Part shown: positions 26,438 to 49,946 of the stretch, in pieces | Layout of the letters: each line of letters starts with the position of its first letter | How positions within the stretch are numbered: position 1 is the first letter of the stretch | Virus record (IMG/VR): IMGVR_UViG_3300042569_001383 | Coordinates: 24,125-88,124 of that record | Length of the DNA: 64,000 bases | Source of the DNA: a virus | Taxonomy: Duplodnaviria > Heunggongvirae > Uroviricota > Caudoviricetes | Strand: one strand, 5' to 3' | Made by a program: the position numbers and the translations under genes | Notes under the pieces: generated by a model | Told to the model about the DNA's origin: nothing | Database searches by the model: none | Seen by the model: only the letters and a program-made list of their open reading frames with translations

Positions 26438-26440
26438 GTT

Positions 26441-34771: not shown

Positions 34772-35200
34772 TTATTTACCTGTTGAACCAAATCCACCAG
34801 CTCCGCGATCCGAATCGGAAAGTTCTTCTGTTTCCTCAAACATAATCGTTGGATATGGTAATATTATTAATTGACCTACTCGCTCACCTACTTGGAATAC
34901 TTTAGCATTCAATAATCCGTTAACGGGGCGAAACTTAAACATAATTTCACCACGATACCCAGAGTCAACAACACCTACATGATTTGTTAGATATAAATCT
35001 GTTTTGCTATTTGATGATCTAGGGAATATTAAACCAACATACCCTTCCGGTATTTCAACTGCTAATCCGGTACCATAAACAACATTTCCATATTGATCCT
35101 GAGTTGCCGATACTGCTGTCAAATCCAATCCAGCATCACCCGGCTTTGAATATGCCGGGATAACTGCGTCTACATGTAATTTTTTAATTTTTACTTGCAT
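34772..35200 (-). CDS. dut: dUTP diphosphatase
   Basis: AGLDL, PRSS and GVVDSGYRGE (dUTPase motif 3) motifs, plus a C-terminal Gly-rich motif 5. Confidence 0.9.
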   Translation of the reverse strand: MQVKIKKLHVDAVIPAYSKPGDAGLDLTAVSATQDQYGNVVYGTGLAVEIPEGYVGLIFPRSSNSKTDLYLTNHVGVVDSGYRGEIMFKFRPVNGLLNAKVFQVGERVGQLIILPYPTIMFEETEELSDSDRGAGGFGSTGK

Positions 35201-35926: not shown

Positions 35927-37189
35927 TTAAAATTTAAAGAATTTATTGAAATTTTCTGCATCTGTAGTTGAAATGCTACTTCCGCCGAACTTTTTATATG
36001 TTTTAATGTATTTTTCGTACGTATTCAATGCTGCATCTGGATCTCCGAACATTTCGTGTAATGAAAGGATTACATCATATAAATCTTTAGGAACAACCGT
36101 TTCTAATAATTCAACGTGACTGTCTACCATTTGATTGATATCTTCTGCTGCGCGGACGTATAAATGCGTATTATGAACAACCATTCTAGGCATAGCTTCT
36201 TGTGAATAACGATCCAATCCAGTTGCGGTTTGTCCACCTAATAATTCATAAGTAAAATCTTCGCACGCAGGGCATCCTAATGAACACGGAACATGCTGTG
36301 TTAAATCTATGCTAGTTGCATCGGGTCTACCTTGTTTAATATGATTCTTTCTGCGATATTCAGCATTTTTTGGAAAATACAATTCAGAAAACGTTTGAGT
36401 TTTGTAATTTGTTGAATGCAAATATGTTCCAAATACTGGATATTGTCCTGGCGAGGAAGAATCCGTAGTAATGTATATTCTATTGCCGGTATGTTTATTC
36501 ATTAATTTTTGCAATGTTGCTAAAATGAAAAAATCCGAAATTTTACTAATACCTAATAAATGTACATATTCTAATCTAGGATTTTCAAATTCGCGATTTT
36601 TTAACATTAATGCCACCGCAAACATGAAATCTACTAATTTTTGAGGACCACCAATCGCCCACCCTTGGAAATCAAAATGTTTAAATTTATGATACCACCA
36701 AGTATATTCATCGGTATTTGATCCTTGCAACATGTTTAAGAATTTGGTTTTTCCACTTTGATGTTTTTCAAACCAAGCAAAATTATCAAAACTAATGTCA
36801 GCACAATGTGCAAATTGATTTCTATATTTATTTTTCGGCGGAATATCTAAATTTGCAGCTACATCGCTATTAGCTTCTAACCAATGAAAGATTTTTTCTC
36901 GTAATTCATTGCTATATGGCAATGCACCGGTTGCAACCTGATATCCACCTGAGTCGCCAAATGTTAATACATCTTTTTCTAAACCCAATTGTTCTCGAAA
37001 ATCCATTTTTTTATAATGATGCCCCGCAGTAACCAAGAAGTAAGGGTGTCGCCATTCTTTTGGATATCGAGAATCAAAGAATTTTACGGGTGCACCGCTT
37101 TCAAATTTCATATCCTTCTTAAATGCAGATACCATAGATCCTGCAGATAGAGACGGAAAATATATGAAACGTTTATTTTGTTCGTTCAT
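35927..37189 (-). CDS. dpdA: DpdA-like DNA-guanine transglycosylase (TGT family)
   Basis: VLTFGDSGGYQV matches the TGT catalytic DSGGFQ loop. C-terminal Cys/His cluster HVPCSLGCPAC ... H resembles the TGT zinc site. FolE, QueD and QueE lie 5-10 kb away. Confidence 0.65.
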   Translation of the reverse strand: MNEQNKRFIYFPSLSAGSMVSAFKKDMKFESGAPVKFFDSRYPKEWRHPYFLVTAGHHYKKMDFREQLGLEKDVLTFGDSGGYQVATGALPYSNELREKIFHWLEANSDVAANLDIPPKNKYRNQFAHCADISFDNFAWFEKHQSGKTKFLNMLQGSNTDEYTWWYHKFKHFDFQGWAIGGPQKLVDFMFAVALMLKNREFENPRLEYVHLLGISKISDFFILATLQKLMNKHTGNRIYITTDSSSPGQYPVFGTYLHSTNYKTQTFSELYFPKNAEYRRKNHIKQGRPDATSIDLTQHVPCSLGCPACEDFTYELLGGQTATGLDRYSQEAMPRMVVHNTHLYVRAAEDINQMVDSHVELLETVVPKDLYDVILSLHEMFGDPDAALNTYEKYIKTYKKFGGSSISTTDAENFNKFFKF

Positions 37190-38234
37190 TGTATTCCTTT
37201 AGTTTATTAATTAATTGTTTTGCTGAAAAAAAGTTATTATGTAACTTTTGCACTAATTGTGCTATTGATTCTGATATTTCTTTGTGTTCGTATTCTAAAA
37301 TTGCACGTGCTGCGTCATTTACCGAATCAGCTCGTTTAAACATCGGGTCATACATTTCCGTATAAGACAACCGATTTGGTACTATAGGACATGCACCAGC
37401 ACACGCTGATTCATACATCGAAATACCCAATGTTTCTTGGTCTGCAAATGAAACTGCAAATCGTGCACGTTGTAGCAATTCATGATATTGCGATTTCGTT
37501 AAATTCATTTCCATTGCTACACAAAATTGATAATGTTTCAAGTCTGGATGTTTTGCTAATCTTTGAAATAAATCTAATCGTTTCTCAGGAGCTATTCGAT
37601 GCGGAAATACTATGATATTTTCTTTTTTAGCCCACAACTGCGGAGCAATCATTGTTTCCGTGTATTCCATTGGCCAACCCGTTCTATCGAAAGTCGGATT
37701 ATGTGCAATATCATACGTTTTCTTCATTAAATTAAAATGCGCACTAGTTGCTAACCAATTATGGTCAAATGCACCAATGAATGCTTGTTCTGCGTGCCTA
37801 ATCCATGGTTTATCTCCCACGAGACGTCCTAAAAAGTCATACGGGTCATATGAACCCGCGTGCCATAATCCGTGCGTTACAACGGGAATATTTAAAAGTT
37901 CACTCATGTATTTAACATTGATGATACCCGGGTGCCATGCATCGGTAAATACTATTTGGTCACCCGGATTAATTTTGCCTTGAGTAAATAACTCAGCTAA
38001 ACGATGCGTTTGCGTTGCCTTGTACATGTTAGTGCCACCAAAGTTCAAAAATGCACCTGGAGTAACGGCATCTGGTATATCAAAGTCGCCTTCGATTACT
38101 TCAACGTCAAATCCATTATCTCGCAATAAAGCGGGAACGTGCCATTTCCATTCGCAAGTATATCGAGTAGGTACTGATTCTAAATCTACTAAAAATATTT
38201 TCATGTTACCTTTCAATGATTGCACCGTTTTCAA
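37173..38234 (-). CDS. GT-B glycosyltransferase resembling T4 DNA beta-glucosyltransferase
   Basis: C-terminal ADQETLGISMYESACAGACPIV E-x7-E motif. N-terminus MKIFLVDLESVPTRYT resembles T4 BGT MKIAIINMG ... FKTVPSSETIY. Overlaps the DpdA-like gene by 17 nt. Confidence 0.45.
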   Translation of the reverse strand: MKTVQSLKGNMKIFLVDLESVPTRYTCEWKWHVPALLRDNGFDVEVIEGDFDIPDAVTPGAFLNFGGTNMYKATQTHRLAELFTQGKINPGDQIVFTDAWHPGIINVKYMSELLNIPVVTHGLWHAGSYDPYDFLGRLVGDKPWIRHAEQAFIGAFDHNWLATSAHFNLMKKTYDIAHNPTFDRTGWPMEYTETMIAPQLWAKKENIIVFPHRIAPEKRLDLFQRLAKHPDLKHYQFCVAMEMNLTKSQYHELLQRARFAVSFADQETLGISMYESACAGACPIVPNRLSYTEMYDPMFKRADSVNDAARAILEYEHKEISESIAQLVQKLHNNFFSAKQLINKLKEYNERTK

Positions 38235-38556
38235 AATCTTCCCAAACTTCTACTTTATACAAACTTGGAAATGATTCTAATAACCACTCTCCAATCATTT
38301 CACATGACATTGAACCAAATTCTAATACATTAGTCTCGGAACCAGTAAATCCTATACGAAGACCTTTTTGTATTTTGCGATTCAATAAGATAAATTCTTC
38401 ATCTCGGTCCGTATGCGTTACATTTGCATAACAACGGAAACCAAACATGTGTCGATGTCTATCTGATAAAAATGCTACTTCTGGAAAAATGTCTTTAGCA
38501 TCAGGCCAACAATGAAACCCTTCGATACTAAATGTTACTACTACACTATATTTCAT
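38206..38556 (-). CDS. hypothetical protein
   Basis: 116 aa ORF between the GT-B gene and the DNA polymerase. Confidence 0.3.
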   Translation of the reverse strand: MKYSVVVTFSIEGFHCWPDAKDIFPEVAFLSDRHRHMFGFRCYANVTHTDRDEEFILLNRKIQKGLRIGFTGSETNVLEFGSMSCEMIGEWLLESFPSLYKVEVWEDFENGAIIER

Positions 38557-38579
38557 AACTTATTATATATAATTTATCA

Positions 38580-41096
38580 TCATTTTCCAAAGGAAAAGAA
38601 TTTTTTTGCGTTATTATTTTCTGGAAAAGCTCCCCAATTCATTGCAGCGTAAAAATCATCTAATTTATTTTGAAGTTCTTGTCTGAATATTTTATTACGG
38701 TCAATGTACTGTTCCACAAATTCCATGGTTGGTATTGGATCTTCATAACCTCTAAGTGCCATTGTATCGAATCCATATGGATTATCTGCTAAATACGCCC
38801 ACTTAACCTTTTCTCCATTTTGTATCGGAGTAATATCTTTGATTTTATGCATATGTAAAAAATCATTGAAATTGATTGCGGCTTTAACGTGTGCTGGAGT
38901 TCCTTTTGGATATCCGGTGAATGGACGTCGTCCTTTTACGAATTTTGAAATTTCCTTGACTCCGGAGTTTTTCATTACATTCAATACTTGTGAATTTTTC
39001 AATCCGGATTTGAAATTATGTATTACATCGGATGTCGTTGTTTTATCTCGTTCCTTAAGAATATTCCACAATGTTTCTTTCATGATTTTTTTGAAATCTT
39101 CCGGGAAACTAGACCTAACAACATCTAATCCTTTGATGTCTAATTTATCGGTAGGTTTTCCTTCTTTAAAAATAACCCATTGTGCGTAACGTTTCTTTGC
39201 AATCCACAAACCAGATTTTGCAATGTATTCTTGTTTAATTTGGAATCGATGCGTGCGTGTATTGTGAAACTTGTCTGCATATATATCATACATTGCATTA
39301 ACTTTGCGTTGAACTTCAGATGCAATTTCATTGGTTTTTTCAATCATAAATTGTTCGTCGGTTTCATCGCAATCTGGATATCGTGCTTTGATTAATGGCA
39401 AACTAGATACAAAGGTTGAATCTGTATCAGTATAAAATGCATATTCTGCGCGCATTCCGGTTGCATTGATAAAATGATCCGCACCAATTTCTTTTGTGTA
39501 ATGTGAATTGATTACTTTTGCTGAAAATTTAATGATGCTTTGTCCTGTTGCTGTAATCGCACCTGCATTATCTAAGTCATGGAATCTAAATGTTTTTAAA
39601 CCTAATACTCCGTAAAATGAATTAAGCAATACTTTTTGTGTTAATTGTAATGCATCGTAAAATTTATATTGTTCAGATCCAACAGCATATTCATCGCGTT
39701 TATCTTTGTATTCTACACGTTCATTAAACCATTTTTCTAGAATAGTTGGTAAGAATCCTTTAATATCGGTTCGATATACAGCTCCGTTGCTAGCAACTGT
39801 ATATTTGTTATCTTCAAGCCAATTGCGAACATTTTGTGCATACGTGCCATCTGTGAAATATACCTGCGTAGCTTCTGGTTTTAATAAACATTCCGAATCC
39901 CAATTTTGAATAACAGTTACTTTGGTTTCTGGAGATATATTCAAACTCATGATGATACTTGGATACAAAGAAGTTAAATCTAAGTCATAAATCCATTTAT
40001 ATAATCCAGGTACTGGCGCCATTACATAAGCTCCTGCCAATGCATCGGATTCAGTTTCTTCTTCTACAAAGCGGAATCGTTTATTTGGAGCAACTAAATT
40101 GTTACGTTTTAAATCGACAATTGCTGCACCATCTAAATATTTAGATGCATAATATACATCTTCATAAGGAACATGTCCTTTGTGACAAATTGTACGTGCT
40201 AACGGTATCAATTGCAATTTATCATCTAAATCATGCACTAAATTAACATCGACCATGTTATATTCAACAAATTTATTGATATCAGTGGCAAACAATTGAT
40301 TCAAGTCGCCTTCGTATTCTACTTTACCTCGTCCTAATTCAAATTTAGCAACGGTGTCTAAACGATAATTGGCTAATTCAGTGTAAGTAAACTTTTTATA
40401 CAAAGTTAAATAATCTAAACTAGATACACCAAATATTTTGTATCGTTCTCGATTTTTATTCCATTCAACTATTCCAGCTGGTGACAATTTTTTTGTGGCT
40501 TGTACACCTAATATGTTTTTAATTCGATTGATTAAATATGGAATATCGTAATTATCAGTATTCCATCCGGAAATTACTGTGGGTTGTATTTCTGCGAATA
40601 TGTTAATGAATCGAGTTAACATTGTAGCTTCTGACGTAAATACTTCAACTACATAGCCATCACCACCAAACCCGTTGCATTCTAAACGACGTTCTTCGTC
40701 TAATAGCAATACGCGTCTATCGTTGGTTGATTTAGAATAATATGCAATTGATGTAATTCTTGCACGTGCTTCTGCTGCGGTTGAATAACCATTTTCATCG
40801 CGTTCCGTTTCAATATCAAAAAAGAAATCACGATGACCTTTTGACGGTTCATCTGATTCATGATATAAATCTATTAATGTTCGAATTTCTTCATTTATAT
40901 CAGATTCATATGCTTCTGAATTATCTTTAAAATTTCCTTCAACGCGACTTAATCGAGTTCCGTCCAATGACAGACTTGTGCCATTTTTGTCTGGCATATA
41001 TGCATATGGTTTGAATGGAAACTTTTGGTGTCCTAATTCATCATCCCACACGTGCATTATGCCCGTTTTTTTATCGTAACCTATTGACTGAAACAT
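38580..41096 (-). CDS. DNA polymerase, family B (T4 gp43-like)
   Basis: DLTSLYPSII (motif A, DxxSLYPS), YTDTDS (motif C), KxxxNSxYG-like motif B region, and an N-terminal exonuclease region. 838 aa. Confidence 0.95.
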   Translation of the reverse strand: MFQSIGYDKKTGIMHVWDDELGHQKFPFKPYAYMPDKNGTSLSLDGTRLSRVEGNFKDNSEAYESDINEEIRTLIDLYHESDEPSKGHRDFFFDIETERDENGYSTAAEARARITSIAYYSKSTNDRRVLLLDEERRLECNGFGGDGYVVEVFTSEATMLTRFINIFAEIQPTVISGWNTDNYDIPYLINRIKNILGVQATKKLSPAGIVEWNKNRERYKIFGVSSLDYLTLYKKFTYTELANYRLDTVAKFELGRGKVEYEGDLNQLFATDINKFVEYNMVDVNLVHDLDDKLQLIPLARTICHKGHVPYEDVYYASKYLDGAAIVDLKRNNLVAPNKRFRFVEEETESDALAGAYVMAPVPGLYKWIYDLDLTSLYPSIIMSLNISPETKVTVIQNWDSECLLKPEATQVYFTDGTYAQNVRNWLEDNKYTVASNGAVYRTDIKGFLPTILEKWFNERVEYKDKRDEYAVGSEQYKFYDALQLTQKVLLNSFYGVLGLKTFRFHDLDNAGAITATGQSIIKFSAKVINSHYTKEIGADHFINATGMRAEYAFYTDTDSTFVSSLPLIKARYPDCDETDEQFMIEKTNEIASEVQRKVNAMYDIYADKFHNTRTHRFQIKQEYIAKSGLWIAKKRYAQWVIFKEGKPTDKLDIKGLDVVRSSFPEDFKKIMKETLWNILKERDKTTTSDVIHNFKSGLKNSQVLNVMKNSGVKEISKFVKGRRPFTGYPKGTPAHVKAAINFNDFLHMHKIKDITPIQNGEKVKWAYLADNPYGFDTMALRGYEDPIPTMEFVEQYIDRNKIFRQELQNKLDDFYAAMNWGAFPENNNAKKFFSFGK

Positions 41097-41109
41097 CGAG
41101 TCTTTCTTT

Positions 41110-41616
41110 TTAATTTAATTTATAAACATCTGGTAATTCTCTTTGAATTCCGTTATTATCTAATCCATAGCCCAAAATCCACTCATCATCAATTTCAAAT
41201 CCACAAAAATCAGTTAAATCTACACCATTTTTACGTTTAAACAAAGTAACAACTTTTACCTCAGCAGGTTGGCGACTATTTATCATGAACAATGCTTCTA
41301 GAATAGTAGAACCAGTATCACAAATATCGTCAACTAAATATACTTGTTTGTTGTGTAAATCTAACTCTAAATCCTTAAGACAAATTACGCCACCAGAATT
41401 GTCTTGTCCACTATATGATTTTAAACGTATAAAATCTAATTCACTCGTAACACTTAATGCACGAGTAAGATCCGAAAAGAAATGTATTGAACCATTTAAA
41501 ATGCAAATCATTACCGGTGGTAAACTTGATTTTGATTTTCGATAATCTTGTGTAATTTCAACTGCTAGTTGATATACTCGATTTGCGATTACATCTTTTG
41601 TAATGAATTTTTCCAT
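41110..41616 (-). CDS. hpt: hypoxanthine-guanine phosphoribosyltransferase
   Basis: PRPP-binding motif VYLVDDICDTGSTI. 168 aa type I PRTase. Confidence 0.8.
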   Translation of the reverse strand: MEKFITKDVIANRVYQLAVEITQDYRKSKSSLPPVMICILNGSIHFFSDLTRALSVTSELDFIRLKSYSGQDNSGGVICLKDLELDLHNKQVYLVDDICDTGSTILEALFMINSRQPAEVKVVTLFKRKNGVDLTDFCGFEIDDEWILGYGLDNNGIQRELPDVYKLN

Positions 41617-41822
41617 AAACGATATATTCCGTAAAGATTGATTGCTATGATAACTAAACTTAAAACCATATGACTGATATTGTTAATATGCAAATCATAT
41701 ACAATCCAACCGATATCGCCTGATATCCAAGTTATCATTGCGGCTTTATTATATCCACGTGCATTAGCAACATAGCCAACTAATACCAATGCCGTGCTTA
41801 CCCATCCTAGAATTTCTATCAT
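41589..41822 (-). CDS. small membrane protein
   Basis: 77 aa with two hydrophobic helices. Confidence 0.3.
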   Translation of the reverse strand: MIEILGWVSTALVLVGYVANARGYNKAAMITWISGDIGWIVYDLHINNISHMVLSLVIIAINLYGIYRLWKNSLQKM

Positions 41823-42118
41823 GGTTTCAAATTTATCATTGCAATTTCATGTTCGCGAACTAGAATAAAATCGGTTGATCCTAATTGTACTTTCTTTTGT
41901 GAACCTAAATTACCAGAATAAATTTTAACTCGGTCTCCGGATTTTACAGTCATAGGAATTTTATTTCCGGTTTGAGTAAATAATCCATCTCCTACTGCAT
42001 AAACATCACATTCGATATAATCATCCAATGAATTCATAATGATAATACCACTTTGAGTTTTATCTTGTTTTTCTAATTGTTTTAGGAGTACTTGATCTCC
42101 AATTGGTTTCCATTCCAT
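41819..42118 (-). CDS. groES: co-chaperonin GroES (Cpn10, functional analog of T4 gp31)
   Basis: 99 aa. MEWKPIGDQVLLKQLE ... SGIII parallels GroES MNIRPLHDRVIVKR ... GGIVL. Mobile loop and roof hairpin spacing are conserved. Confidence 0.7.
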   Translation of the reverse strand: MEWKPIGDQVLLKQLEKQDKTQSGIIIMNSLDDYIECDVYAVGDGLFTQTGNKIPMTVKSGDRVKIYSGNLGSQKKVQLGSTDFILVREHEIAMINLKP

Positions 42119-42133
42119 AACTTATTCCTATTT

Positions 42134-42385
42134 TTATTTATTAAACATTTCCGTAACTGATTGTGGTGTTATATTGCTACCAACCAATCTTCCCGTAACT
42201 GTGCCGTTATTATCAATTATAACAACACACGGTACATTGCGAATACCATATTGTTCACAAGTTGATTTATTTGTATCAACATCAATGAATTGTACCGGCA
42301 ACGTTTGTGATAATTGTTGCATTTTTGGTTTTATCATTTTACATGGTCCACACCATTCTGCCGTAAAATATAATATTTTTTTCAT
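42134..42385 (-). CDS. trx: thioredoxin
   Basis: WCGPC active site, 83 aa. Confidence 0.85.
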   Translation of the reverse strand: MKKILYFTAEWCGPCKMIKPKMQQLSQTLPVQFIDVDTNKSTCEQYGIRNVPCVVIIDNNGTVTGRLVGSNITPQSVTEMFNK

Positions 42386-43171
42386 TTATACTCCTCGTTT
42401 CGTATCAAATGCAATGATGTGGTCTCTTCCGGTCATATTATAACCTTTTTCTGCACACATATCAAATACAATTGGATACATTTTTATTAATTCATCTCTA
42501 GTGTCGCCAGCTGGCATTATGTATGTTTTATGTTTTGGAATACCCATTTCTACTCGGAATGTTTCAATTTCTTCTAAATTTTCCGGTGTTCCATCCCATA
42601 CTGGTTTATAATGATAATCATGATGATATGCAATCATTTTTGCAATATTTTCTCGATGCAACCTAAATTTATTATGTTGCTTAATCATACGTTCATCAAC
42701 TACGTCACCTAATGGTGTCGTTGCTCCAATTACCGGTACCGAGTTATTAAATTTAGGAGATAATGAAACTAAGTCAAATGGAATTTCAGTTTCAACGTAA
42801 TGTGAGCCTTCTGTCTCAATTGTGGTAATGATACCACGCTTGCTAGCAAACATAGTCAATTCATTCATTAATGCCGGGTGCATTGTCGGAGAACCGCCTG
42901 TAATCATCATTTCTTTAACGTGAGGATTAGCATCATATATTGCAATGATATCATTGAATGTGAAAGTTCCTTTTTCCGGATGTATACTAGTATACCAACT
43001 ATCACACCAACCGCCTTCACCAAAATAGCATCTATGAGTGCATCCCGTTGTTCTTACTGCAATTGTAGGTCTGCCAAATCGACTGCCTTCGCTTTGCACA
43101 CAACGATACAATTCAATGATTGGTAATGTTTTATTGTAATCTGTAATTCTATTAGAATGGGAGGTCGTCAT
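42386..43171 (-). CDS. queE: 7-carboxy-7-deazaguanine synthase QueE (radical SAM)
   Basis: QSEGSRFGRPTIAVRTTGCTHRCYFGEGGWCDSW parallels E. coli QueE QGEG ... G.P..F.R..GC ... C.WCD. ITGGSP cluster motif. Confidence 0.8.
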   Translation of the reverse strand: MTTSHSNRITDYNKTLPIIELYRCVQSEGSRFGRPTIAVRTTGCTHRCYFGEGGWCDSWYTSIHPEKGTFTFNDIIAIYDANPHVKEMMITGGSPTMHPALMNELTMFASKRGIITTIETEGSHYVETEIPFDLVSLSPKFNNSVPVIGATTPLGDVVDERMIKQHNKFRLHRENIAKMIAYHHDYHYKPVWDGTPENLEEIETFRVEMGIPKHKTYIMPAGDTRDELIKMYPIVFDMCAEKGYNMTGRDHIIAFDTKRGV

Positions 43172-43499
43172 GTTCTTCCTGTATTATTAATGTATCAAGT
43201 CTTTTAACTAATTGTGCGAACTGCGTTTCCAGGTTAATAAGTCTTTGATGTAATTCCGTTAAATTATTTAAAGGTGCAGTGGGTGTAGGTTCTTTGCCAA
43301 AATATTCATCTAAGAATGATACTGGATATGTAGCTACTGAAGTAAATTCTGTCGTTTGCAATGCTTCCGGTAACGGTTCATATACAATTTTAATTCGCTT
43401 TGCCTTTGCTGCTGCGTTAACTTCTCGTCCTAAACCAGATTGTTTAGATGCTTGTCCTCTATATGTATACAAGGACATGTATTGTTCATTACTCTCCAT
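43152..43499 (-). CDS. hypothetical protein
   Basis: 115 aa ORF between queE and queD. Confidence 0.3.
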   Translation of the reverse strand: MESNEQYMSLYTYRGQASKQSGLGREVNAAAKAKRIKIVYEPLPEALQTTEFTSVATYPVSFLDEYFGKEPTPTAPLNNLTELHQRLINLETQFAQLVKRLDTLIIQEEHDDLPF

Positions 43500-43974
43500 A
43501 AATTGCTGAGTTTTTATTATGTTCGTTAAATTCTACTTGAGTAACACGTACTCTATTATTTGTTTCTTCTAGTACAAATTCATTTACTTTATCGTAGATG
43601 TATTTTGCGAATTGTTCTGCTCCGGTAGCAGGAATAATTCTTAGCTGGATAAGTTCTATTTCGTTCATTGCTTTAAAGTATGGCAACAAAGGATCATCTT
43701 CAGCTATAATTGTAGTGTGATCAAACGTATGATCCATCCATGCTTTAGGATTCATTCCTCCAATAGTACATTTAGCACGTTTCATACCACCAAAATCCCA
43801 GACCCAATTTTTTTCATCTAGTTCACCTTCAAATGTGATTTTAAATGAAATGCCATACCCGTGTAAGAATTTGCAATGTGTATCTTCTGCTCGCCATTGA
43901 CGGAAACAAGTTGAGTAACCGTCGAATAATTTTGTTGAATTATATTTTGCCATTTTATCCTTCTTTACTATCAA
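43489..43974 (-). CDS. queD: QueD-like 6-carboxy-5,6,7,8-tetrahydropterin synthase (T-fold)
   Basis: CKFLHGYG resembles the CxxxHGH zinc motif, with the second His replaced by Tyr. Size and context fit. Confidence 0.55.
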   Translation of the reverse strand: MIVKKDKMAKYNSTKLFDGYSTCFRQWRAEDTHCKFLHGYGISFKITFEGELDEKNWVWDFGGMKRAKCTIGGMNPKAWMDHTFDHTTIIAEDDPLLPYFKAMNEIELIQLRIIPATGAEQFAKYIYDKVNEFVLEETNNRVRVTQVEFNEHNKNSAIYGE

Positions 43975-44365
43975 ATTTATAATCGTCTGGAGTTGATGTT
44001 TGCATATTGCATTTTACTACATTATACGTGGTAAATGGCCTAGTAACTATTTTTACAATGTCATTGCGTTTTAATAATTCTAATTCCGGACACTCTAATG
44101 ATAACATGATGCGACAACGATTTAACATTGTCGGCGGAATTGATTTTAATAAATCAGGTGTCACTTCCAATGTAACGATGTATCGCATATCTAACATTTC
44201 TTCGATAATTTGCCAATTTGGCTTATCTGTTATGTAACTAATACACAAGTAAATATGTGGATATTCATCCCAATTATTTGGTATTTGAGTTCTAACAAAT
44301 ACCGTAGCGATATCCGTTAATGGACCTTCTACCTCTTTGCCGTAAAAATATTCTACTCCAAACAT
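43955..44365 (-). CDS. hypothetical protein
   Basis: 136 aa. Motif A lies upstream at 44375-44390. Confidence 0.35.
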   Translation of the reverse strand: MFGVEYFYGKEVEGPLTDIATVFVRTQIPNNWDEYPHIYLCISYITDKPNWQIIEEMLDMRYIVTLEVTPDLLKSIPPTMLNRCRIMLSLECPELELLKRNDIVKIVTRPFTTYNVVKCNMQTSTPDDYKFDSKEG

Positions 44366-44374
44366 ATGTTTTTA

Positions 44375-44390
44375 TTTATTATATGAAATT
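44375..44390 (-). promoter_or_regulatory. motif A variant upstream of 43955-44365 (head of the queD-queE segment)
   Basis: Plus-strand tttattatatgaaatt. Confidence 0.4.
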
Positions 44391-44392
44391 AA

Positions 44393-45313
44393 TCAATCAT
44401 TCCAAACCAAAAAGCTACGAATAAATTTCGTATCTCCATTTCTATGCAAAGATTCAGCAAATGCTTGTTTATAATCTTTAGAATCATATGCATTGGTCCA
44501 AACCCAATCAACATCTAAAACTCCTTGTTCAATTAGTTCTGGAGTTCGTTTCATTATGATAGGAAACGATTTGGATCTAGGAGATGGAAATGAATATTGT
44601 AAATTTTTCCATAATGGTTTCCAAAATGTGGTATGTACTGGTTGATTGAATGATGCAGCCAAATATATATGTGCATTATCATTAGCTACATCCGTTATGC
44701 GTTCGTAATTTTCTTGTTTACCACTTAATTCCAAAATGACGTCATATGTATCACAAGTGTCAAACGTAACAAATTTGGCGCCAATTCGGTTCCATTGTTC
44801 TTCATTATGATTTCCAATTACATGAATTGATAACTTTGGCAATATGTGTTTAAGATATTGTGCAGCTAAATTAGATACAAAACCAGATCCAACTATTAGA
44901 ATATGTTTCATATCAACATGATGATTCCAAAAATATAGTATTTGATTTGCAATGTTTACCGAACACGCAACTGGCTCAATGATATATTTTGTACTCAATT
45001 CTGGTACTCGAGTTGTATTAGGTTCCGTTGCATAAAAATATGGAGAATATGCTAAATCATCTCGAGATGCAACAAAATCGCCTACTTTGAATTCCGTTAT
45101 ATCGGCTCCAACTGCAACCACTTCGCCTACCGATTCGTGTCCGAAACAACCATATGGAATTTCAATTTTACCTGTGTATTGGTCAATATCACTTCTGCAA
45201 ATGCCGGTATATTTAGTTTTGATTAAAATTTGATCGGGACGCATTTCGCCTAAATCGAAATCATAATCATTGATAGTTTCACCTCCGAAACTATGAAATA
45301 TGGTTGTTTTCAT
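44393..45313 (-). CDS. zinc-dependent medium-chain dehydrogenase/reductase (alcohol/sugar dehydrogenase-like)
   Basis: GHESVGEV catalytic zinc motif and GICRSD. Second Rossmann motif IVGSGFVS. Confidence 0.7.
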   Translation of the reverse strand: MKTTIFHSFGGETINDYDFDLGEMRPDQILIKTKYTGICRSDIDQYTGKIEIPYGCFGHESVGEVVAVGADITEFKVGDFVASRDDLAYSPYFYATEPNTTRVPELSTKYIIEPVACSVNIANQILYFWNHHVDMKHILIVGSGFVSNLAAQYLKHILPKLSIHVIGNHNEEQWNRIGAKFVTFDTCDTYDVILELSGKQENYERITDVANDNAHIYLAASFNQPVHTTFWKPLWKNLQYSFPSPRSKSFPIIMKRTPELIEQGVLDVDWVWTNAYDSKDYKQAFAESLHRNGDTKFIRSFLVWND

Positions 45314-46240
45314 TTAATATATTATGTTTTTGATTTGTGTAACTGTTTGAATTGATTCCGTAAAGTTTTCTAATATCGAGTGAATTTCAGTATCATATGC
45401 CTGATGTTTTTTATATGTTGCGTCATCTGCAAACATGTATTCTTGCAACATGGAATTATATGCCGATTCCGGACATAACCCAGATATGAAATCAAATACT
45501 TCTCCGGATTTCATATGAAATTTCCATTTTACTACATCGGAGTCTGTATCATATTTCCATGTACTTATGCATTGTATATCAATTCCGTTTGATTCAGCAA
45601 ATACAATAGCACAATCATCTACATCGTAAATTCCATTTGCATGAAATTGTCCGTAAGACGACTCGTTTGTTACAGTATCCATATCATATTGCTGATAACA
45701 AGTTGCGTGTATATTTTGCAAAGGTTGATTGGTAACGCGTTGTGCGACACTTAATAAATGTGGCATCAAATCACGTGAAACTCCGCCACCTGCTAATTTT
45801 TTATTAGTAAACCAACTGCCTGCTCCTGGAATTCTATTTTGATTCACCCAAAACAATTGCAAAGCTTTGATATTCGATGTATCAATAGAATCAAATATGA
45901 TGCGATGTTGATTGTTTTTTACCATGAACAATTTAGAGTTAGGATATGTTTCGTAAAAAGATATCCAACGGTGAACATCAGCAAAACCAGGCTTTTCTAC
46001 TACAATTGTAGCTACGCCATGTTTTGCCATAATTTCAGCAACAGTTTCGTGTGTAAAATTTGGAGTACAAACAATACCCATATCTACATGTATGTTTCGC
46101 AATGCATCTTCAATATATAAAAAATCAGCGTTTGCGTCTGGATTGATGTCTACCGTAATTACATTCCATCCGATAGATTTACATACATCAACATACAATT
46201 TACCAATACCTAATCCAACAATTGCTACTGTCTTATGCAT
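45314..46240 (-). CDS. Gfo/Idh/MocA-family NAD(P)-dependent oxidoreductase
   Basis: N-terminal VAIVGLGIGK Rossmann motif and VVEKPGF (the EKP signature of this family). Confidence 0.7.
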   Translation of the reverse strand: MHKTVAIVGLGIGKLYVDVCKSIGWNVITVDINPDANADFLYIEDALRNIHVDMGIVCTPNFTHETVAEIMAKHGVATIVVEKPGFADVHRWISFYETYPNSKLFMVKNNQHRIIFDSIDTSNIKALQLFWVNQNRIPGAGSWFTNKKLAGGGVSRDLMPHLLSVAQRVTNQPLQNIHATCYQQYDMDTVTNESSYGQFHANGIYDVDDCAIVFAESNGIDIQCISTWKYDTDSDVVKWKFHMKSGEVFDFISGLCPESAYNSMLQEYMFADDATYKKHQAYDTEIHSILENFTESIQTVTQIKNIIY

Positions 46241-46937
46241 TGTAACCTTTTATAAATTCGTAAAATTCAAATCGAGTGCTAGAATCAGTCATAAATGCAC
46301 CCGATAACTTTGCAGTTTTCATTGATGCACCACGATGTTTTACTCCTCGACATGATACACAGTTATGAGTTGCTTCAATCATAACTGCTACGCCTTTATT
46401 GTCAGTAATAAGTTCGTCGATTGCATGTTGTATTGCCACTGTTAATTGTTCTTGAATTGCTCCGCGTCTTCCAAAATGTTCAACTACTCGATTCAATTTA
46501 CTTAAACCTACTACATTGCCATTTTCTGCTGGAATATATGCAATATGAACTAAACCTTCAATTGTTTGATGATGGTGACTACACATCGATGTTAATGGAA
46601 TTCCTCCTTCAAACACAATTCCATCATATCCATCGCTAGGGAAAGATGTGATATCAGACATTGGTTCGTAACGACCTTTCCATAAATCATTAACATATGC
46701 TTTTGCTACACGACGAGGTGTATTATCCGAGTTTGGATCATTTTCCCACGCAACACCTAGTGCACGTAAAAACTCACCATAATGATGAGCAGCATCATCG
46801 ATAATCTCTTGTTTCTCTACATCGGTTAATCTTGCATCTGGTCCGAATATTATTTGTTTTGTTGCTAATTGTGTTGAGATGCCATTAGCAAAACCAGATT
46901 TAACTAATTCTAAATTTTTTCTTTGTTCTTGAGTCAT
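46233..46937 (-). CDS. folE: GTP cyclohydrolase I FolE
   Basis: MCSHHHQTIEG (CEHH motif) and GLVHIAYIPAENGNVVGLSKLNRVVEHFGRR (GTP-CH-I signature). Confidence 0.9.
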   Translation of the reverse strand: MTQEQRKNLELVKSGFANGISTQLATKQIIFGPDARLTDVEKQEIIDDAAHHYGEFLRALGVAWENDPNSDNTPRRVAKAYVNDLWKGRYEPMSDITSFPSDGYDGIVFEGGIPLTSMCSHHHQTIEGLVHIAYIPAENGNVVGLSKLNRVVEHFGRRGAIQEQLTVAIQHAIDELITDNKGVAVMIEATHNCVSCRGVKHRGASMKTAKLSGAFMTDSSTRFEFYEFIKGYNA

Positions 46938-46988
46938 AACTTGTTTCTTATTTATATTATAAGATAATTTATTTAAAATTCAAAGTTT

Positions 46989-47868: not shown

Positions 47869-48090
47869 TTAATAAATATCTTTTAGGATAGTTTCGCCTT
47901 TTTTATGTTTAGGCTCATAAGGACAATGTCGACATCCGTTGCCACAACATGTTCCGCGTCTTCGATGATACTCTTCAGTCATTACTCGATAACCGTTAGT
48001 ATCATAATAAAAGTCCGTTGGAAGGAGCTTGTTGCCAAACTCCTTCACGAACTGTTGTTGTATCCAATCTTTTGATGCCGGTTGTATCAT
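47869..48090 (-). CDS. small Cys-rich protein
   Basis: CCGNGCRHCPY cluster. Immediately upstream of the RNR. Confidence 0.3.
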   Translation of the reverse strand: MIQPASKDWIQQQFVKEFGNKLLPTDFYYDTNGYRVMTEEYHRRRGTCCGNGCRHCPYEPKHKKGETILKDIY

Positions 48091-49946
48091 TATTTTATCT
48101 CACATGCACCGCCTGCACACGCTAACTCGCCTGACAAGTCGGTATTATCATCTAATTCAATTACTTGACTCAAATCAATGTTATGAAGTGATTGCATCAT
48201 CGTGTCATATGTTTCTTTGCTACAATCTTCGAAGGGAGCTTGCGTATACGTTCCTCCATTATAGGGTAAAACTGATAAACCGTTGTAATGATCTCTGTTT
48301 TCCCACATCCATTCTCCAGCCAAGTCCCATTCATCATCTTTCAACGATACCGTTGCTGATACGTTGTGTGTATTGTTTCCAGTTCTATGTCCCGGTTTAA
48401 CCCATTCCAAATGTACTTTTTTAATACGGTCCAATAATTGGAAAGGAGATTCAAAACGCATAATTGCGCCTTCTGGTGCTTTTTGTGGAATTGAAATAAC
48501 TGCAGTATCGTGTGGACGGAAATATTCATCTTCAATCAATTCCGGATGGTTTGTTGCTAAATATGAATAAATTGCTTCATTTTTTCCTACACGGATACGA
48601 CGAATATAATAATCATTGTGCCATGCGTGTATTCCTGAACTCGTTCCTAATGCTAATGATGTTGTTCCTGCTGGTTTAACCGTTGTAGTACGTGCTGAAC
48701 GATTAATTCCGATTAATTCTGCTACTCTTGCATTTTCTTCTTTAACTGCTTTTGCTGCGGATTTCATATCATAGCCTAATACGGTGCCAGATCCAATACC
48801 TGTCATTGATACACCAATTAATGCATCTTTTTCAGTGGTTCTTTGCCAAATTGGACGTAGATAATGGAAACTAGTATATCCTGCTTGAAGCGTACCAATA
48901 AATGCAGCTGCGCGAACTCGTGCTTCTAAATCTTCTTGTGATTCAATATCAGATGCATTTACTTCGCATAAATTACAGAATTGGAAAGGACGTAATGCAA
49001 TTTCACAACATGGATTAGTTCCCCAATCTTTATCATTTGTCAAATAAATTCCAGGTTCTCCAGCTCCAGATAATTCAACACGTTTCCATAAATCCATAAA
49101 GAATTCTTTGGTAAGTTTATGGCGCATCAATGTTGCGGAGTTATTTGCACGACCTCTTTGTGGATTTGTTTCCCACCAATTTCCTGATTTACATGCAATC
49201 ATTTCTTCATCGTCTGCAGAGAACAAACTAATCAATGCTGCTCTACGAATACCACCTGCTAACACTGCATCAGCAACATGGCATACCATATCATGTACTT
49301 CGATTGGAGATAGTTTATCGCCATCTTCTTTTGCATCCAAAATACCTTGTAATTTAATCAAACATTCTTTTAAAGGCTGCGGTCCTGGAGCTTTTCCTCC
49401 CGATGTAACCAATCTTGCTCCTTTTTGACGAATGTCGGAAAAATCAAAAGTAAATGATGAACCTCCTGTGAAATATGATTTAACGAGTACTTTAACAGCA
49501 TCTGCCCAACCTTCAATTGAATCTGCAATCAAGTATCGACGATTCTTTTTAGGATTTGGTTTGTGTATTTCTGGTAATTGTTCAACATGATGTTTTTGAA
49601 CCGAATAACCTACTCCAGTTCCACCTAATAAAAGGAACATTGCTTCACCAAATGCTCTGTGGTCATCAATTGGTAAATATGCACAATTATAAATTCTATT
49701 AGGCGAAATTTCAATTGGTTTTCCTCCGAATTGCAAGCTACGCATCGATGGCAATACTTTTTTATCATAAACAAAACGATATGCAGATTCAATTTCCGTT
49801 TCTAGTTCCGGATATTTTTTAATGTGCATTTGCTTGTTTCTTGTAACTAATTCTTCCCATGTTTCTCGACGATTGAGTTCCGGAAGATATTTTGCATACT
49901 TCATGTATACAGTAATCTCGCTTAAAATTTTGTTGGAAATTTCCAT
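48090..49946 (-). CDS. ribonucleotide reductase catalytic subunit (likely class II, adenosylcobalamin-dependent; no NrdB seen)
   Basis: NPCCEIALRPFQFCNLCEV parallels the NPCGEI ... CNL active-site finger. C-terminal ACAGGACEIK redox Cys pair. 618 aa. Confidence 0.75.
   Translation of the reverse strand: MEISNKILSEITVYMKYAKYLPELNRRETWEELVTRNKQMHIKKYPELETEIESAYRFVYDKKVLPSMRSLQFGGKPIEISPNRIYNCAYLPIDDHRAFGEAMFLLLGGTGVGYSVQKHHVEQLPEIHKPNPKKNRRYLIADSIEGWADAVKVLVKSYFTGGSSFTFDFSDIRQKGARLVTSGGKAPGPQPLKECLIKLQGILDAKEDGDKLSPIEVHDMVCHVADAVLAGGIRRAALISLFSADDEEMIACKSGNWWETNPQRGRANNSATLMRHKLTKEFFMDLWKRVELSGAGEPGIYLTNDKDWGTNPCCEIALRPFQFCNLCEVNASDIESQEDLEARVRAAAFIGTLQAGYTSFHYLRPIWQRTTEKDALIGVSMTGIGSGTVLGYDMKSAAKAVKEENARVAELIGINRSARTTTVKPAGTTSLALGTSSGIHAWHNDYYIRRIRVGKNEAIYSYLATNHPELIEDEYFRPHDTAVISIPQKAPEGAIMRFESPFQLLDRIKKVHLEWVKPGHRTGNNTHNVSATVSLKDDEWDLAGEWMWENRDHYNGLSVLPYNGGTYTQAPFEDCSKETYDTMMQSLHNIDLSQVIELDDNTDLSGELACAGGACEIK

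Follow-up and report, generated by a model that had tools for sequence, protein, structure and literature searches.

We suggest that the 64-kb window, the whole stretch of phage DNA analysed here (64,000 nucleotides), carries a QueC-independent, DpdL-type module for the modification of DNA with 7-deazaguanine, together with a conserved accessory set for which we found no published description; taken as a whole, this statement is likely to be correct. The virion DNA very probably contains a deazaguanine-type base, and we tentatively propose that this base bears a sugar-derived substituent. As the pathway is tightly joined to a glycosyltransferase (GT) and its partner genes here and in hundreds of phage contigs, the DNA of phages with such loci may contain a sugar-decorated purine, to judge from gene linkage. 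The two key papers (PMC10516641, PMC6884629) mention neither a glycosyltransferase nor a phosphoribosyltransferase, and we found no description in the literature of a GT, a purine phosphoribosyltransferase (PRTase) or dehydrogenases as partners of the deazaguanine route.

All reading frames of a first-pass annotation of this DNA lie where it had placed them, on the minus strand, which also carries the DpdL, x136, x115, PolB and ribonucleotide reductase genes described below. Its family assignments hold in general, apart from the likeness of the GT to T4 beta-glucosyltransferase; the DpdA-like call stands through an indirect match to TGT.

Core pathway without QueC

The 7-deazaguanine DNA-modification pathway named in that annotation is supported by a set of FolE, QueD, QueE, DpdL and DpdA-like proteins. 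FolE (46233-46937), the GTP cyclohydrolase I of the first step from GTP, matches Pfam PF01227 (GTP_cyclohydroI) at 1e-44. The QueD-type CPH4 synthase, placed at 43489-43974 before and here at 43489-43953 with its start corrected to the ATG at 43953, matches Pfam PTPS at 1e-14 and has the variant motif CxxxHGY. QueE (42386-43171), the radical-SAM 7-carboxy-7-deazaguanine (CDG) synthase, matches the QueE-like PHROG 2076 at 1.6e-47 and the NCBIfam QueE models at 1.8e-14, which is under their cut-offs. The corresponding proteins of Cellulophaga phage phiST are 67% (FolE), 64-66% (QueD, with the same variant motif) and 62% (QueE) identical to those of the window. Between QueD and QueE lies a small conserved frame, x115 (43152-43499), which has no match in family searches (Pfam, PHROG); clade-A relatives have it in the same place, at 42-48% identity in L008, L009 and L014.

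The missing QueC is no sign of a novel route. A gene at 38206-38556 was overlooked; it encodes DpdL, a QueD paralogue of 116 aa, which assigns the locus to the DpdL/dDG class of 2023. The motif LSDRHRHMF of this protein is the DpdL signature LxxxHRHxF (PMC10516641); the protein is 39.5% identical to DpdL of phiST (gp040) and matches PHROG 17812 at 6e-23. In the literature DpdL is proposed to be the CDG decarboxylase yielding 7-deazaguanine; its occurrence in phages without QueC is reported by Cui et al. (PMC10516641). The DNA of phiST contains 100% 7-deazaguanine (dDG), and its genome has no QueC (PMC10516641). Since DpdL is present and FolE, QueD and QueE are 62-67% identical to those of phiST, the absence of QueC is the normal state of the known (2023) DpdL-type pathway. 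The absence itself is confirmed in the 64-kb window, where the best tblastn match to E. coli QueC has an E of 2.4 and the sole SGGxDS motif is found at the C-terminal end of a MoxR-type AAA ATPase. Cui et al. did not obtain dDG in E. coli from DpdL and DpdA of phiST or ACP17, and suggest that further enzymes are perhaps required (PMC10516641).

The DpdA-like protein (35927-37189) is presumed to be the DNA guanine/deazaguanine base-exchange enzyme. Searched alone, it has no match in Pfam, NCBIfam or PDB, and AF2 models it poorly (pLDDT 54). Its place in the TGT superfamily follows from orthologues, family profile, motifs and synteny: orthologues at 72-76% identity carry PF01702 (P0060 scores 28.5 bits, cut-off 26.3), the family profile finds QTRT1 at E=0.006 and bDpdA 7ui4 at 0.59, and the motif GDSGGYQ is present, with its D79 and also D243 invariant across 38 diverse members. 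The protein is also homologous to the ACP17 ORF located between FolE and GT.

Accessory proteins

The GT gene (37173-38204) starts at the ATG at 38204, not at 38234 as annotated before. Its product is indeed a GT-B glycosyltransferase, but the likeness to T4 beta-glucosyltransferase is rejected: the fold is that of a GT4-like retaining enzyme and the protein matches Glycos_transf_1 (26.8 bits, cut-off 26.4). It retains the EX7E donor motif, and its N-terminal (acceptor) domain is specific to the family and highly conserved. The closest folds are BshA, MshA, SPS and PglA-like proteins, which act on small molecules or glycans, and with its pI of 6.2 the GT is not basic, which does not speak for DNA binding. 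As 7-deazaguanine lacks a hydroxyl group, a classical O-glycosyltransferase would be without an obvious acceptor, and one must assume either C- or N-glycosylation or that x136 installs a handle. There is a precedent in the GT4-type HuiG, which adds GlcNAc to a 7-deazapurine base.

The DpdL stop lies 1 nt ahead of the GT ATG, and the 17-nt overlap of the GT and dpdA-like genes is confirmed; translational coupling thus joins the GT gene to DpdL on one side and DpdA on the other. A second coupled string is FolE/Gfo/MDR, where the end of FolE overlaps the start of Gfo by 8 nt and the Gfo stop TAA immediately adjoins the MDR ATG.

The small conserved protein x136 (43955-44365), whose stop is one base ahead of the QueD ATG, has no match in Pfam or PDB and is assigned by conserved linkage as a core partner of the GT/DpdL/DpdA set. 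Every clade-A relative has a homologue between PolB and DpdL, and others are found in 47 of 52 clade-B loci and in the phages PA5oct (EST35_0364) and ACP17 (ASD50402); there are 83 representative clusters among 1.84e9 proteins.

The extra enzymes do lie outside the described routes and are linked to the pathway, as had been claimed, but the two dehydrogenases are an optional part of the system. The Gfo/Idh/MocA-family NAD(P) oxidoreductase (45314-46240) has PF01408 and PF22725, both over the gathering cut-off, and the motifs GxGxxG and EKP. The other enzyme (44393-45313; Pfam ADH_N 5e-14) is a divergent zinc MDR dehydrogenase of the polyol/threonine-dehydrogenase type, with residues fitting the catalytic zinc-ligand motifs (GICRSD, GHES, IEPVAC) and with the structural-zinc lobe missing. 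Its family is tiny (35 proteins among 5.8e9). The Gfo gene is always paired with the MDR gene, and the pair also occurs in L014, L015, L016, PA5oct and 16 clade-B loci; the pair always adjoins x136. Of 17 clade-B loci, 16 have MDR flanked by Gfo and x136, and the contig of the 17th ends upstream of MDR. Among phage records, full-length Gfo matches come from PA5oct-like phages only and MDR matches from the same phages, plus a weak one (22% identity) in cyanophage S-SM2. Both dehydrogenases are missing in L009, the closest long relative (DpdA 88% identical), and in 12 of the 23 complete clade-B loci. Identities of x136 differ according to whether the pair is there (0.71 and 0.57 inside the two groups, 0.46 across them), a split that is not seen for GT, DpdL and PolB. 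As the GT does not co-vary with Gfo/MDR, the dehydrogenases may not remodel its donor sugar.

The HGPRT assignment (41110-41616) is upheld by TIGR01203 (145.4 bits, cut-off 150) and by a 3e-35 match to the solved HGXPRT 4qri; this canonical 6-oxopurine phosphoribosyltransferase has the PRPP loop VDDICDTG with its Asp retained. The slot is conserved in L004-L009, L015 and 11 IMG/VR clade-A loci. Purine PRTases of two types, HGPRT and XGPRT, accompany DpdL systems in at least five lineages including phiST; for the XGPRT type the other phage matches among 50,697 records are phiST, phi13:1 and phi19:2 only.

Recurrence in other phages

The accessory genes are genuinely linked to the pathway, since the same sets recur on one strand, often as overlapping genes, in unrelated phages. 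In IMG/VR, 591 relatives were confirmed and 80 loci were kept, all with the system genes on one strand. GT and x136 recur beside DpdL and DpdA in ACP17, PA5oct, BUCT-ZZ01 and these 80 loci (for x136, the clade-B fraction given above). DpdA, GT and DpdL are adjacent in ACP17 and PA5oct, DpdL adjoins GT in BUCT-ZZ01, and Gfo, MDR, GT, x136 and DpdL stand together in L016. The 23 clade-B loci that extend 6 kb or more to both sides of the GT were counted as complete; DpdA, DpdL and FolE are present in all 23, x136 and QueE in 22, PRTase in 19, Gfo with MDR in 11 and QueC in 0. All phage-database GT matches stronger than 1e-19 come from genomes also encoding DpdL. The DNA of PA5oct behaves as G-modified (PMC12191111).

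Proposed mechanism

From gene linkage, the locus is best read as a dDG system with an add-on, absent from the literature that we found, that probably decorates the deazapurine with a sugar. Roles in the core pathway are assigned by homology, with activities from the literature on each family, and accessory roles are taken from linkage.

Step 1: FolE, QueD and QueE would convert GTP to CDG, which DpdL would decarboxylate to 7-deazaguanine.

Step 2: The DpdA-like enzyme of the TGT family would put the deazapurine into the phage DNA in exchange for guanine; phages of the phiST type have dDG in place of all G (PMC10516641). In the simplest view, the purine PRTase would return the expelled guanine via GMP to GTP, the pathway's own precursor. 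Alternatively, it could make 7-deaza-GMP for incorporation via ribonucleotide reductase (RNR) and polymerase.

Step 3: GT and x136 would most probably place a sugar from a nucleotide-sugar donor onto deazaguanine, either on DNA or before insertion. Where present, as in the window, the Gfo-MDR pair might together with x136 further alter the sugar substituent.

Alternative explanations

The locus might make plain dDG as in phiST, with GT, x136 and Gfo/MDR acting on other targets, e.g. a protein of the virion or of replication, a component of the host envelope or some small metabolite, and riding with the replication module for expression timing. We consider this unlikely, even though phiST reaches 100% dDG with neither GT nor x136, both thus being dispensable for dDG itself. 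The missing hydroxyl acceptor, the folds nearest to the GT and its pI speak for the same reading, and glycosyltransferases are common in this genome, which has a glycan cluster of ten genes apart from this locus, at 20.6-29.8 kb. However, timing leaves unexplained why the GT stands beside DpdL/DpdA in at least six unrelated lineages, in varied orders and often with overlapping frames, and why its strong phage matches are confined to DpdL-encoding genomes.

Alternatively, the modification might arise at the nucleotide level, as for tubercidin: the PRTase would join 7-deazaguanine or CDG to PRPP, host kinases, phage RNR/thioredoxin and PolB would carry 7-deaza-dGTP into DNA, and DpdA would clear residual G or have another role. 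Such a route, with which a GT add-on is compatible, also seems improbable to us. The tubercidin cluster works from CDG with a PRTase and a decarboxylase and has no QueC, and 7-deaza-dGTP is a good polymerase substrate, as known from PCR practice. The recurrence of purine PRTases in DpdL systems, the MazG pyrophosphohydrolase and AAA_18 kinase-like protein flanking DpdL in phiST, the single gene string with RNR, thioredoxin, HGPRT and PolB in the window, and the 100% replacement in DpdL phages (PMC10516641) all fit it. On the other hand, DpdA is kept in every complete clade-B locus, and no dGTP-specific hydrolase is identified in the window, the product of 34772-35200 profiling as an ordinary trimeric dUTPase. 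Moreover, the canonical HGPRT of the window retains the PRPP-loop Asp, which contacts the purine N7 that is absent from deazapurines, and the interchange of HGPRT and XGPRT fits generic guanine salvage more simply.

There is very little to be expected of a pterin-glycoside pathway in place of DNA modification, where FolE and a PTPS-like enzyme would yield 6-pyruvoyl-tetrahydropterin, the dehydrogenases would reduce its side chain like sepiapterin reductase and the GT would glycosylate the pterin like cyanobacterial BGluT. It would account for the variant QueD motif and for the place of the dehydrogenases, which stand between the FolE and PTPS-family genes in translational coupling with FolE, but it leaves QueE, DpdL and the TGT-like gene, the most constant partners, unexplained; the same QueD variant occurs in phiST, where dDG was measured, and most GT-keeping relatives are without the dehydrogenases. 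Although the window is only part of a genome of ~170 kb, a conventional preQ0, dADG or G+ pathway with QueC outside it is hardly credible, given the DpdL gene, its reported occurrence in phages without QueC (PMC10516641), core genes that are close kin of those of phiST, no QueC in any fetched phage locus, and no QueF, Gat-QueC or ArcS among the scanned window ORFs.

Neighbouring replication genes

As annotated before, PolB, GroES and thioredoxin genes are interleaved with those of the pathway, according to family searches of the ORFs. The family-B DNA polymerase (38580-41096; Pfam DNA_pol_B 8e-40 and an exonuclease domain) lies inside the locus, and in clade A the x136/DpdL/GT/DpdA block follows directly downstream of it. 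A class II-like RNR (48090-49946; Pfam RNR-II_ins_dom, Ribonuc_red_lgC) is located ~1.2 kb upstream of FolE, with two small ORFs of no assigned family between. It is context for nucleotide supply and precedes FolE also in L004, L006, L008-L010 and L014.

Core of the locus

All genes of the region are on the minus strand, and every reading frame listed in the first-pass annotation is present. Pfam recognizes FolE (46233-46937; GTP_cyclohydroI, 1e-44), a Gfo/Idh/MocA oxidoreductase (Gfo, 45314-46240; both Pfam domains), a zinc MDR dehydrogenase (MDR, 44393-45313; ADH_N, 5e-14), a PTPS/QueD-family protein (QueD, 43489-43974; PTPS PF01242, 1e-14), thioredoxin (42134-42385), GroES (41819-42118; Cpn10), PolB (38580-41096) and a Glycos_transf_1 protein, the glycosyltransferase (GT, 37173-38234). 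QueE (42386-43171) is matched by the PHROG QueE-like family (1.6e-47) and HGPRT (41110-41616) by TIGR01203. The frames of GT and QueD stand, and the junctions move their starts to ATG 38204 and ATG 43953, respectively. The end of FolE runs 8 nt into Gfo, MDR starts directly behind the Gfo stop and 1 nt lies between the DpdL stop and the GT start; the annotated overlap of 17 nt between GT and the DpdA-like gene is also read at the junction. These junctions confirm the tight coupling of the locus genes.

None of 50,697 phage records matched the locus when near-identical DNA was sought, and the scans for promoters and terminators gave counts no higher than chance. A TTGGAA-N16/17-TATAAT element is found upstream of x136 (44378-44405) and of DpdL (38562-38590), and a similar site with TATAAATA is found upstream of FolE (46949-46983), all on the minus strand and in overall counts not above chance.

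Between PolB and GT there is an ORF of 116 aa (38206-38556) that was overlooked in the first-pass annotation. It carries LSDRHRHMF, which corresponds to LxxxHRHxF in place of CxxxHGH. LxxxHRHxF is the signature defining DpdL, the QueD paralogue proposed as the decarboxylase of 7-carboxy-7-deazaguanine (CDG) to 7-deazaguanine (Cui et al. 2023, NAR, PMC10516641). The window protein is alignable with DpdL of phages phiST, ACP17 and PA5oct and is 39.5% identical to that of phiST (gp040; E 2e-13 to 3e-17). In the published pathway FolE, QueD and QueE produce CDG and DpdA exchanges the base after replication; DpdL occurs in phages with FolE, QueD, QueE and DpdA but without QueC, and G is completely replaced in DpdL phages, in phiST by 2'-deoxy-7-deazaguanosine (dDG). 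Decarboxylation by DpdL is a proposal there, and the reconstitution of dDG failed (PMC10516641).

QueC had been reported as absent from the window, and this is the case: the best E obtained by tblastn with the E. coli protein is 2.4, SGGxDS occurs just once, C-terminally in a MoxR-type ATPase, and no homologue of QueC, QueF or thymidylate synthase turned up when most of the remaining window ORFs of ~130 aa or more were scanned with Pfam. The suggestion that its lack signals a new route does not survive. DpdL is present, and FolE, QueD and QueE are 67%, 66% and 62% identical to those of phiST, which has DpdL with LxxxHRHxF and no QueC as well. Hence, a lack of QueC is normal for a pathway class that is already known, the DpdL/dDG class of 2023, to which the core of the locus belongs. 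QueD has CKFLHGY, a CxxxHGY variant and not CxxxHGH, and scores 32 bits with the NCBIfam QueD model against a cut-off of 89; the same variant occurs in phiST, where dDG is proven (QueD 64-66% identical to that of the window). The PHROG match of QueE spans its full length, and the NCBIfam QueE equivalogs stay below their cut-offs.

Glycosyltransferase

The GT (37173-38204) had been related to T4 beta-glucosyltransferase. We find no such relation, as there is no PF09198 match and the T4 enzyme is not among the top matches. The C-terminal domain is Glycos_transf_1 with the GT4 EX7E motif kept (E257-E265) and the closest fold is GT4, as in retaining GT-B enzymes of the GT4 type; the N-terminal domain has many invariant aromatic and acidic residues. 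The GT profile has no match among PDB sequences. The EX7E motif distinguishes the window GT from the T4 DNA glucosyltransferases, alpha-GT (GT72) and beta-GT (GT63), to which it has no sequence relation. Those enzymes glucosylate 5-hydroxymethylcytosine at its hydroxyl, a group that deazaguanine lacks.

With tblastn, homologues of 38-43% identity are found in Acidovorax phage ACP17, PA5oct-like Pseudomonas jumbo phages and Sinorhizobium phage Phosso, and weaker ones in Xanthomonas phages BUDD and X1, Burkholderia phage BCSR5 and Synechococcus phage BUCT-ZZ01. Every one of these phages also encodes DpdL. Homologues in metagenomes number in the thousands. A scan of IMG/VR with the GT alignment yielded at least 591 confirmed relatives, from which 80 loci were kept and annotated with local HMMs.

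The GT slot is swapped among close relatives of the window. Four of them (L004-L007) carry a second subfamily, which shares 24% identity with the window GT and 38% with that of cyanophage BUCT-ZZ01, despite 72% identity in DpdA and 90% in DpdL. A different GT in the same slot suggests a cassette-like exchange of sugar specificity.

Recurrence of the gene set

As in the window, DpdA-like, GT and DpdL genes adjoin FolE, QueD and QueE in ACP17, PA5oct and BUCT-ZZ01. The overlapping genes of ACP17 run FolE, x136-like, DpdA-like, GT, DpdL, QueE, where x136 is the small protein encoded at 43955-44365 in the window. PA5oct has DpdA-like, GT, DpdL with QueE further along, and BUCT-ZZ01 has QueE, XGPRT, QueD, FolE, DpdA-like, DpdL, GT. 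Like the window, ACP17 and PA5oct have x136 homologues, and PA5oct and BUCT-ZZ01 have a purine phosphoribosyltransferase (PRTase). PA5oct (Wroclawvirus) also has the Gfo-MDR-x136 group, but about 25 kb from GT. These clusters have the order DpdA-GT-DpdL versus DpdL-GT-DpdA in the window, and their proteins are only 22-43% identical to those of the window. The DNA of PA5oct behaves as G-modified, the modified G itself having been inferred only (PMC12191111).

The IMG/VR loci fall into two clades. In the window's own clade (clade A, 28 loci) the order is PolB, x136, in some a cytidylyltransferase-like gene, DpdL, GT, DpdA. In the distant clade B (52 loci, GT ~50% identical, contigs up to 245 kb) all system genes are on one strand in the order PolB, clamp, DpdA, [Gfo, MDR], x136, DpdL, GT, XGPRT, FolE, QueE. 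Twenty-three clade-B loci extend 6 kb or more to either side of GT; among these complete loci, DpdA, DpdL and FolE are found in all 23, x136 and QueE in 22 each, PRTase in 19, Gfo with MDR in 11 and QueC in none.

The comparative signal for the association of these genes is strong. The view that the GT, the PRTase and the two dehydrogenases lie outside the described deazaguanine routes proves correct, and they are recurrent partners in unrelated phages. PRTase and GT are unmentioned in PMC10516641 and PMC6884629, and we found no link of either to deazaguanine DNA modification in the literature; nor did we find there a description of the pathway's close and widespread association with a GT4-like enzyme and x136, of the optional Gfo/MDR pair or of the recurrent purine PRTase.

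DpdA-like protein

The product of 35927-37189 had been assigned to the TGT family. A direct model match is missing, with nothing significant at E≤0.01 in Pfam, NCBIfam, PHROG and PDB sequences; the superfamily reading is drawn from orthologues, a profile and motifs. A metagenomic orthologue of 72% identity (P0060) matches PF01702 with 28.5 bits against the gathering cut-off of 26.3, and most metagenomic homologues at 71-76% identity have a precomputed PF01702 match. TGT was matched in 4 of 38 diverse family members, with no competing Pfam family. With a small family profile (A1), E is 0.006 for the catalytic subunit QTRT1 and 0.59 for bDpdA (7ui4), a bacterial DNA-guanine transglycosylase; the broader profile of 38 members has no match in the PDB. 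The hhalign comparison with E. coli TGT gives 69% probability with only the DSGGFQ stretch aligned.

The putative catalytic aspartates D79 (in GDSGGYQ) and D243 are invariant across the 38 members. The clade-B consensus reads GDSGGFQ and ISFDCASP, which we take to parallel TDSGGFQ and MFDCVLP of Z. mobilis TGT. C302, C306, C309 and H339 (C-x3-C-x2-C...H) are invariant in clade A and not alignable in ACP17 or PA5oct. The AF2 model, built from a shallow alignment (≥71% identity), has a pLDDT of 54, which is too poor to judge the fold, and Foldseek with it returns nothing below E=0.08. Given PF01702 in the orthologues, the QTRT1 profile match, TGT as the sole recurrent Pfam family and the invariant D79 and D243, the protein is best read as a TGT-superfamily (DpdA-like) enzyme, predicted to exchange bases on DNA.

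We rejected its assignment to the DpdA3 subfamily (phiST gp042 type). The identity of the 420-aa window protein to phiST DpdA3 (259 aa) is about 18-22% with no BLAST match, and tblastn with the window protein finds neither phiST nor Campylobacter phages (CP220 DpdA3 type) at E≤1e-3. We therefore class it as DpdA-like and give it no subfamily.

x136 and the two dehydrogenases

x136 has no relative in Pfam or the PDB, even when 40 diverse members are used, and forms only 83 representative clusters among 1.84 billion proteins. It occurs with GT throughout, including 22 of the 23 complete clade-B loci, and is absent from phiST. The hhalign match of clade-A x136 to its PA5oct/ACP17 counterpart (x136b) is weak (E 0.004, probability 8%), and the two were later joined via intermediate sequences.

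The Gfo/MDR pair is optional. It is missing from the closest long relative of the window (L009, DpdA 88% identical) and from L004-L010 as a whole, and where present it is located beside x136 inside the cluster (the window, its relatives L014 and L015, the third lineage L016, PA5oct and 17 clade-B loci). Among the 50,697 phage records, only PA5oct-like phages, themselves carriers of the GT set, have full-length Gfo matches; they also account for the MDR matches, apart from a weak one of 22% identity in cyanophage S-SM2. A collection of 5.8 billion proteins contains just 35 members of the MDR family.

Sequences of x136 follow the pair. In clade B, split by the presence of Gfo/MDR, the mean identity of x136 is 0.71 and 0.57 within the two groups and 0.46 between them, with no such split in GT, DpdL and PolB. 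In clade A the window x136 is 67-72% identical to those of Gfo/MDR-bearing relatives and 33-40% to the others, with DpdL at 88-90% throughout. By these identities, x136 co-varies with the Gfo/MDR pair.

MDR has the zinc-family motifs GICRSD, GHES, IEPVAC and GSGFVS and lacks the structural-zinc lobe; its similarity to solved ADHs is limited to the N-terminal 80 residues. Gfo scores 26.7 bits with PF01408 (cut-off 24) and 32.8 bits with PF22725 (cut-off 27), has GLGIGK and VEKPG, and finds no match among PDB sequences at 0.01. Both NAD(P) dehydrogenases are plausibly active. We rejected a role of MDR as a detoxifier of acetaldehyde, the by-product of QueD, as it leaves the obligatory Gfo partner and the co-variation of x136 unexplained.

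In L016, no gene separates Gfo, MDR and GT, and the last two share 7 nt. The same locus has a QueE-like radical-SAM gene with an intein (13885-15741; Hint domains) and an unusually long PolB (1-4019; 1377 aa), perhaps also with an intein.

Purine phosphoribosyltransferase

The enzyme encoded at 41110-41616 matches TIGR01203 with 145.4 bits (1.3e-42), just below the cut-off of 150, aligns with HGXPRT 4qri over its full length (3e-35) and conserves the PRPP loop of type I enzymes, VDDICDTG. By family, it is thus predicted to be a canonical HGPRT. Most clade-A relatives keep the gene in this position. An XGPRT-type enzyme is found instead in clade B, PA5oct (EST35_0321) and BUCT-ZZ01, and the only other phages in the database that match this type are phiST, phi13:1 and phi19:2, exactly the phages with proven dDG. 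That one PRTase type has been exchanged for another speaks for a general role in guanine salvage.

Comparison with known pathways

phiST is similar to the window in having a TGT-superfamily gene that adjoins the polymerase and a purine-type PRTase in the genome. Unlike the window, it has no GT, x136 or Gfo/MDR, its polymerase is PolIII-alpha, and a MazG pyrophosphohydrolase and an AAA_18 kinase-like protein flank DpdL.

By its described steps, the tubercidin pathway is similar to the window locus: QueC is dispensed with, FolE, QueD and QueE lead to CDG, and a PF00156 PRTase and a decarboxylase act next (bioRxiv 10.64898/2026.04.15.718813). By enzyme type, this is also the case for the huimycin pathway, where the GT4-type HuiG transfers GlcNAc to the 7-deazapurine base (PMC7439116; bioRxiv 10.64898/2026.04.15.718813). 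However, the actinomycete tubercidin, huimycin and dapiramicin pathways make free nucleosides or glycosides and have no TGT/DpdA, and the tubercidin decarboxylase is of the UbiD type, unlike the T-fold DpdL of the window.

Proposed mechanism and its alternatives

Judged by homology only, the locus would comprise a complete GTP-to-CDG branch, DpdL, a TGT-superfamily enzyme, a nucleotide-sugar GT with an intact donor motif and a canonical 6-oxopurine PRTase. We suggest that GT and x136 are an add-on that decorates the deazapurine, and that Gfo and MDR act together with x136 and would remodel the substituent further in some lineages, including that of the window. The electron-rich deazapurine may, for example, be C- or N-glycosylated. 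7-Deazaguanine lacks a hydroxyl, which would call for a C- or N-glycosidic bond or for a group that x136 installs; HuiG of huimycin biosynthesis sets a precedent for a GT4-type enzyme that glycosylates a 7-deazapurine base. In the simplest reading, the PRTase would recycle the guanine expelled from DNA to GMP and then GTP, feeding FolE; alternatively, it may make 7-deaza-GMP in a tubercidin-like route. Taken together, this describes a sugar-bearing 7-deazaguanine in DNA, made by GT and x136 and remodelled by Gfo/MDR, with an arms race behind the GT swaps and a PRTase recycling loop or 7-deaza-GMP route. We hold this combined reading tentatively, as less likely than not.

Several facts count against the decoration. 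The GT has a pI of 6.2 and is not basic, it shows no co-variation with Gfo/MDR, phiST contains dDG without any GT, and the genome has a separate ten-gene glycan cluster. The last two are in favour of plain dDG in the window phage, with the GT set acting on a non-DNA target, which we regard as unlikely but worth keeping in view. Should the base be plain dDG, the pathway model still gains components from the comparative result.

The phiST genes MazG, AAA_18 and PRTase (L002, KC821604; 31164-32545 and 50415-50726) look like a nucleotide-level route to 7-deaza-dGTP, which PMC10516641 does not discuss. Incorporation at the nucleotide level through the PRTase is compatible with the decoration by GT and x136; as the explanation of the window locus we rate it improbable, to a similar degree as plain dDG. 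A pterin-glycoside pathway leaves QueE, DpdL and DpdA unexplained and is very improbable. A QueC gene outside the window is hardly credible: DpdL contradicts it, and so does the lack of QueC in all phage loci fetched. Glycosylation of a hydroxypyrimidine via a ThyA homologue (RB69/DLP3 type, PMC13326640) was rejected, as no ThyA-like ORF is present among the window ORFs scanned.

To our knowledge, the glycosylated DNA bases described until now are all pyrimidines (hmC, hmU/base J, 5-hydroxycytosine). If true, a 7-deazaguanine with a sugar would be the first glycosylated purine known in any DNA and a new class of DNA hypermodification with enzymology of a new kind, made with a GT that acts on a hydroxyl-less base and with a new protein family, x136. 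The swapping of GT subfamilies and accessory genes would then be an arms race, like the variety of hydroxymethylcytosine sugars in T-even phages. The recurrent PRTase would make complete G replacement a closed guanine-to-deazaguanine recycling loop or a 7-deaza-GMP nucleotide route; left out of published pathway schemes, it may explain how phages replace G completely. The module is common and is found in cultured phages too (ACP17, the PA5oct-like jumbo phages that are therapeutic candidates, and BUCT-ZZ01). The module may explain both the failed reconstitution of dDG from DpdL and DpdA alone for ACP17 and the modified G of PA5oct that is sensed by END nucleases.

Other genes of the window and its relatives

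The glycan cluster is a ten-gene run with a G+C of 29-33% (20673-29832, minus strand), resembling a glycan-biosynthesis cluster. It encodes two GT2, Glyco_transf_4, GT25, a Polysacc_synt_2/CapD-like dehydratase, two Glycos_transf_1 and unknown proteins, and it is variable in relatives, where methyltransferases, GT11 and GT34 occur.

The cytidylyltransferase-like gene (PF01467, ~140 aa) between x136 and DpdL is present in L005, L008, L009, L014 and 12 IMG/VR clade-A loci and absent from the window; its product may make a nucleotide-activated donor. In PA5oct, EST35_0320 (L003 10800-11318), located between DpdL and QueE, matches PF01370 (6e-7) with the N-terminal part of NAD-dependent sugar epimerases/dehydratases and is, by this match, a predicted further sugar-type enzyme inside a deazaguanine cluster.

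Just after GT, 38 of the 52 clade-B loci encode a 159-aa protein with an HxH...H pattern (e.g. L084 10066-10545), which looks cupin-like and, if an oxygenase, might provide a hydroxyl as a handle. In 17 clade-B loci there is a protein whose HxHxH motif is histidine-triad-like (e.g. L064 9613-9996). We do not count the cupin-like and HIT-family genes as core partners because both are absent from the window clade and from PA5oct.

Besides GroES the phage encodes GroEL (3502-5118; Cpn60, 1e-84), at a distance of ~37 kb; L015 has both genes next to each other and to FolE. A MoxR-type AAA ATPase (7427-8590) adjoins a 732-aa protein with a CobT-like VWA domain (5164-7362), forming a MoxR-VWA pair. 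A CCA-adding/poly(A) polymerase-family nucleotidyltransferase and a PNKP-type phosphatase domain (999-1736 and 2813-3262) possibly serve tRNA repair. Besides PolB, a 449-aa protein (56449-57798) has a weak match to family-A DNA polymerases (5.7e-10), and the same gene is found in L014.
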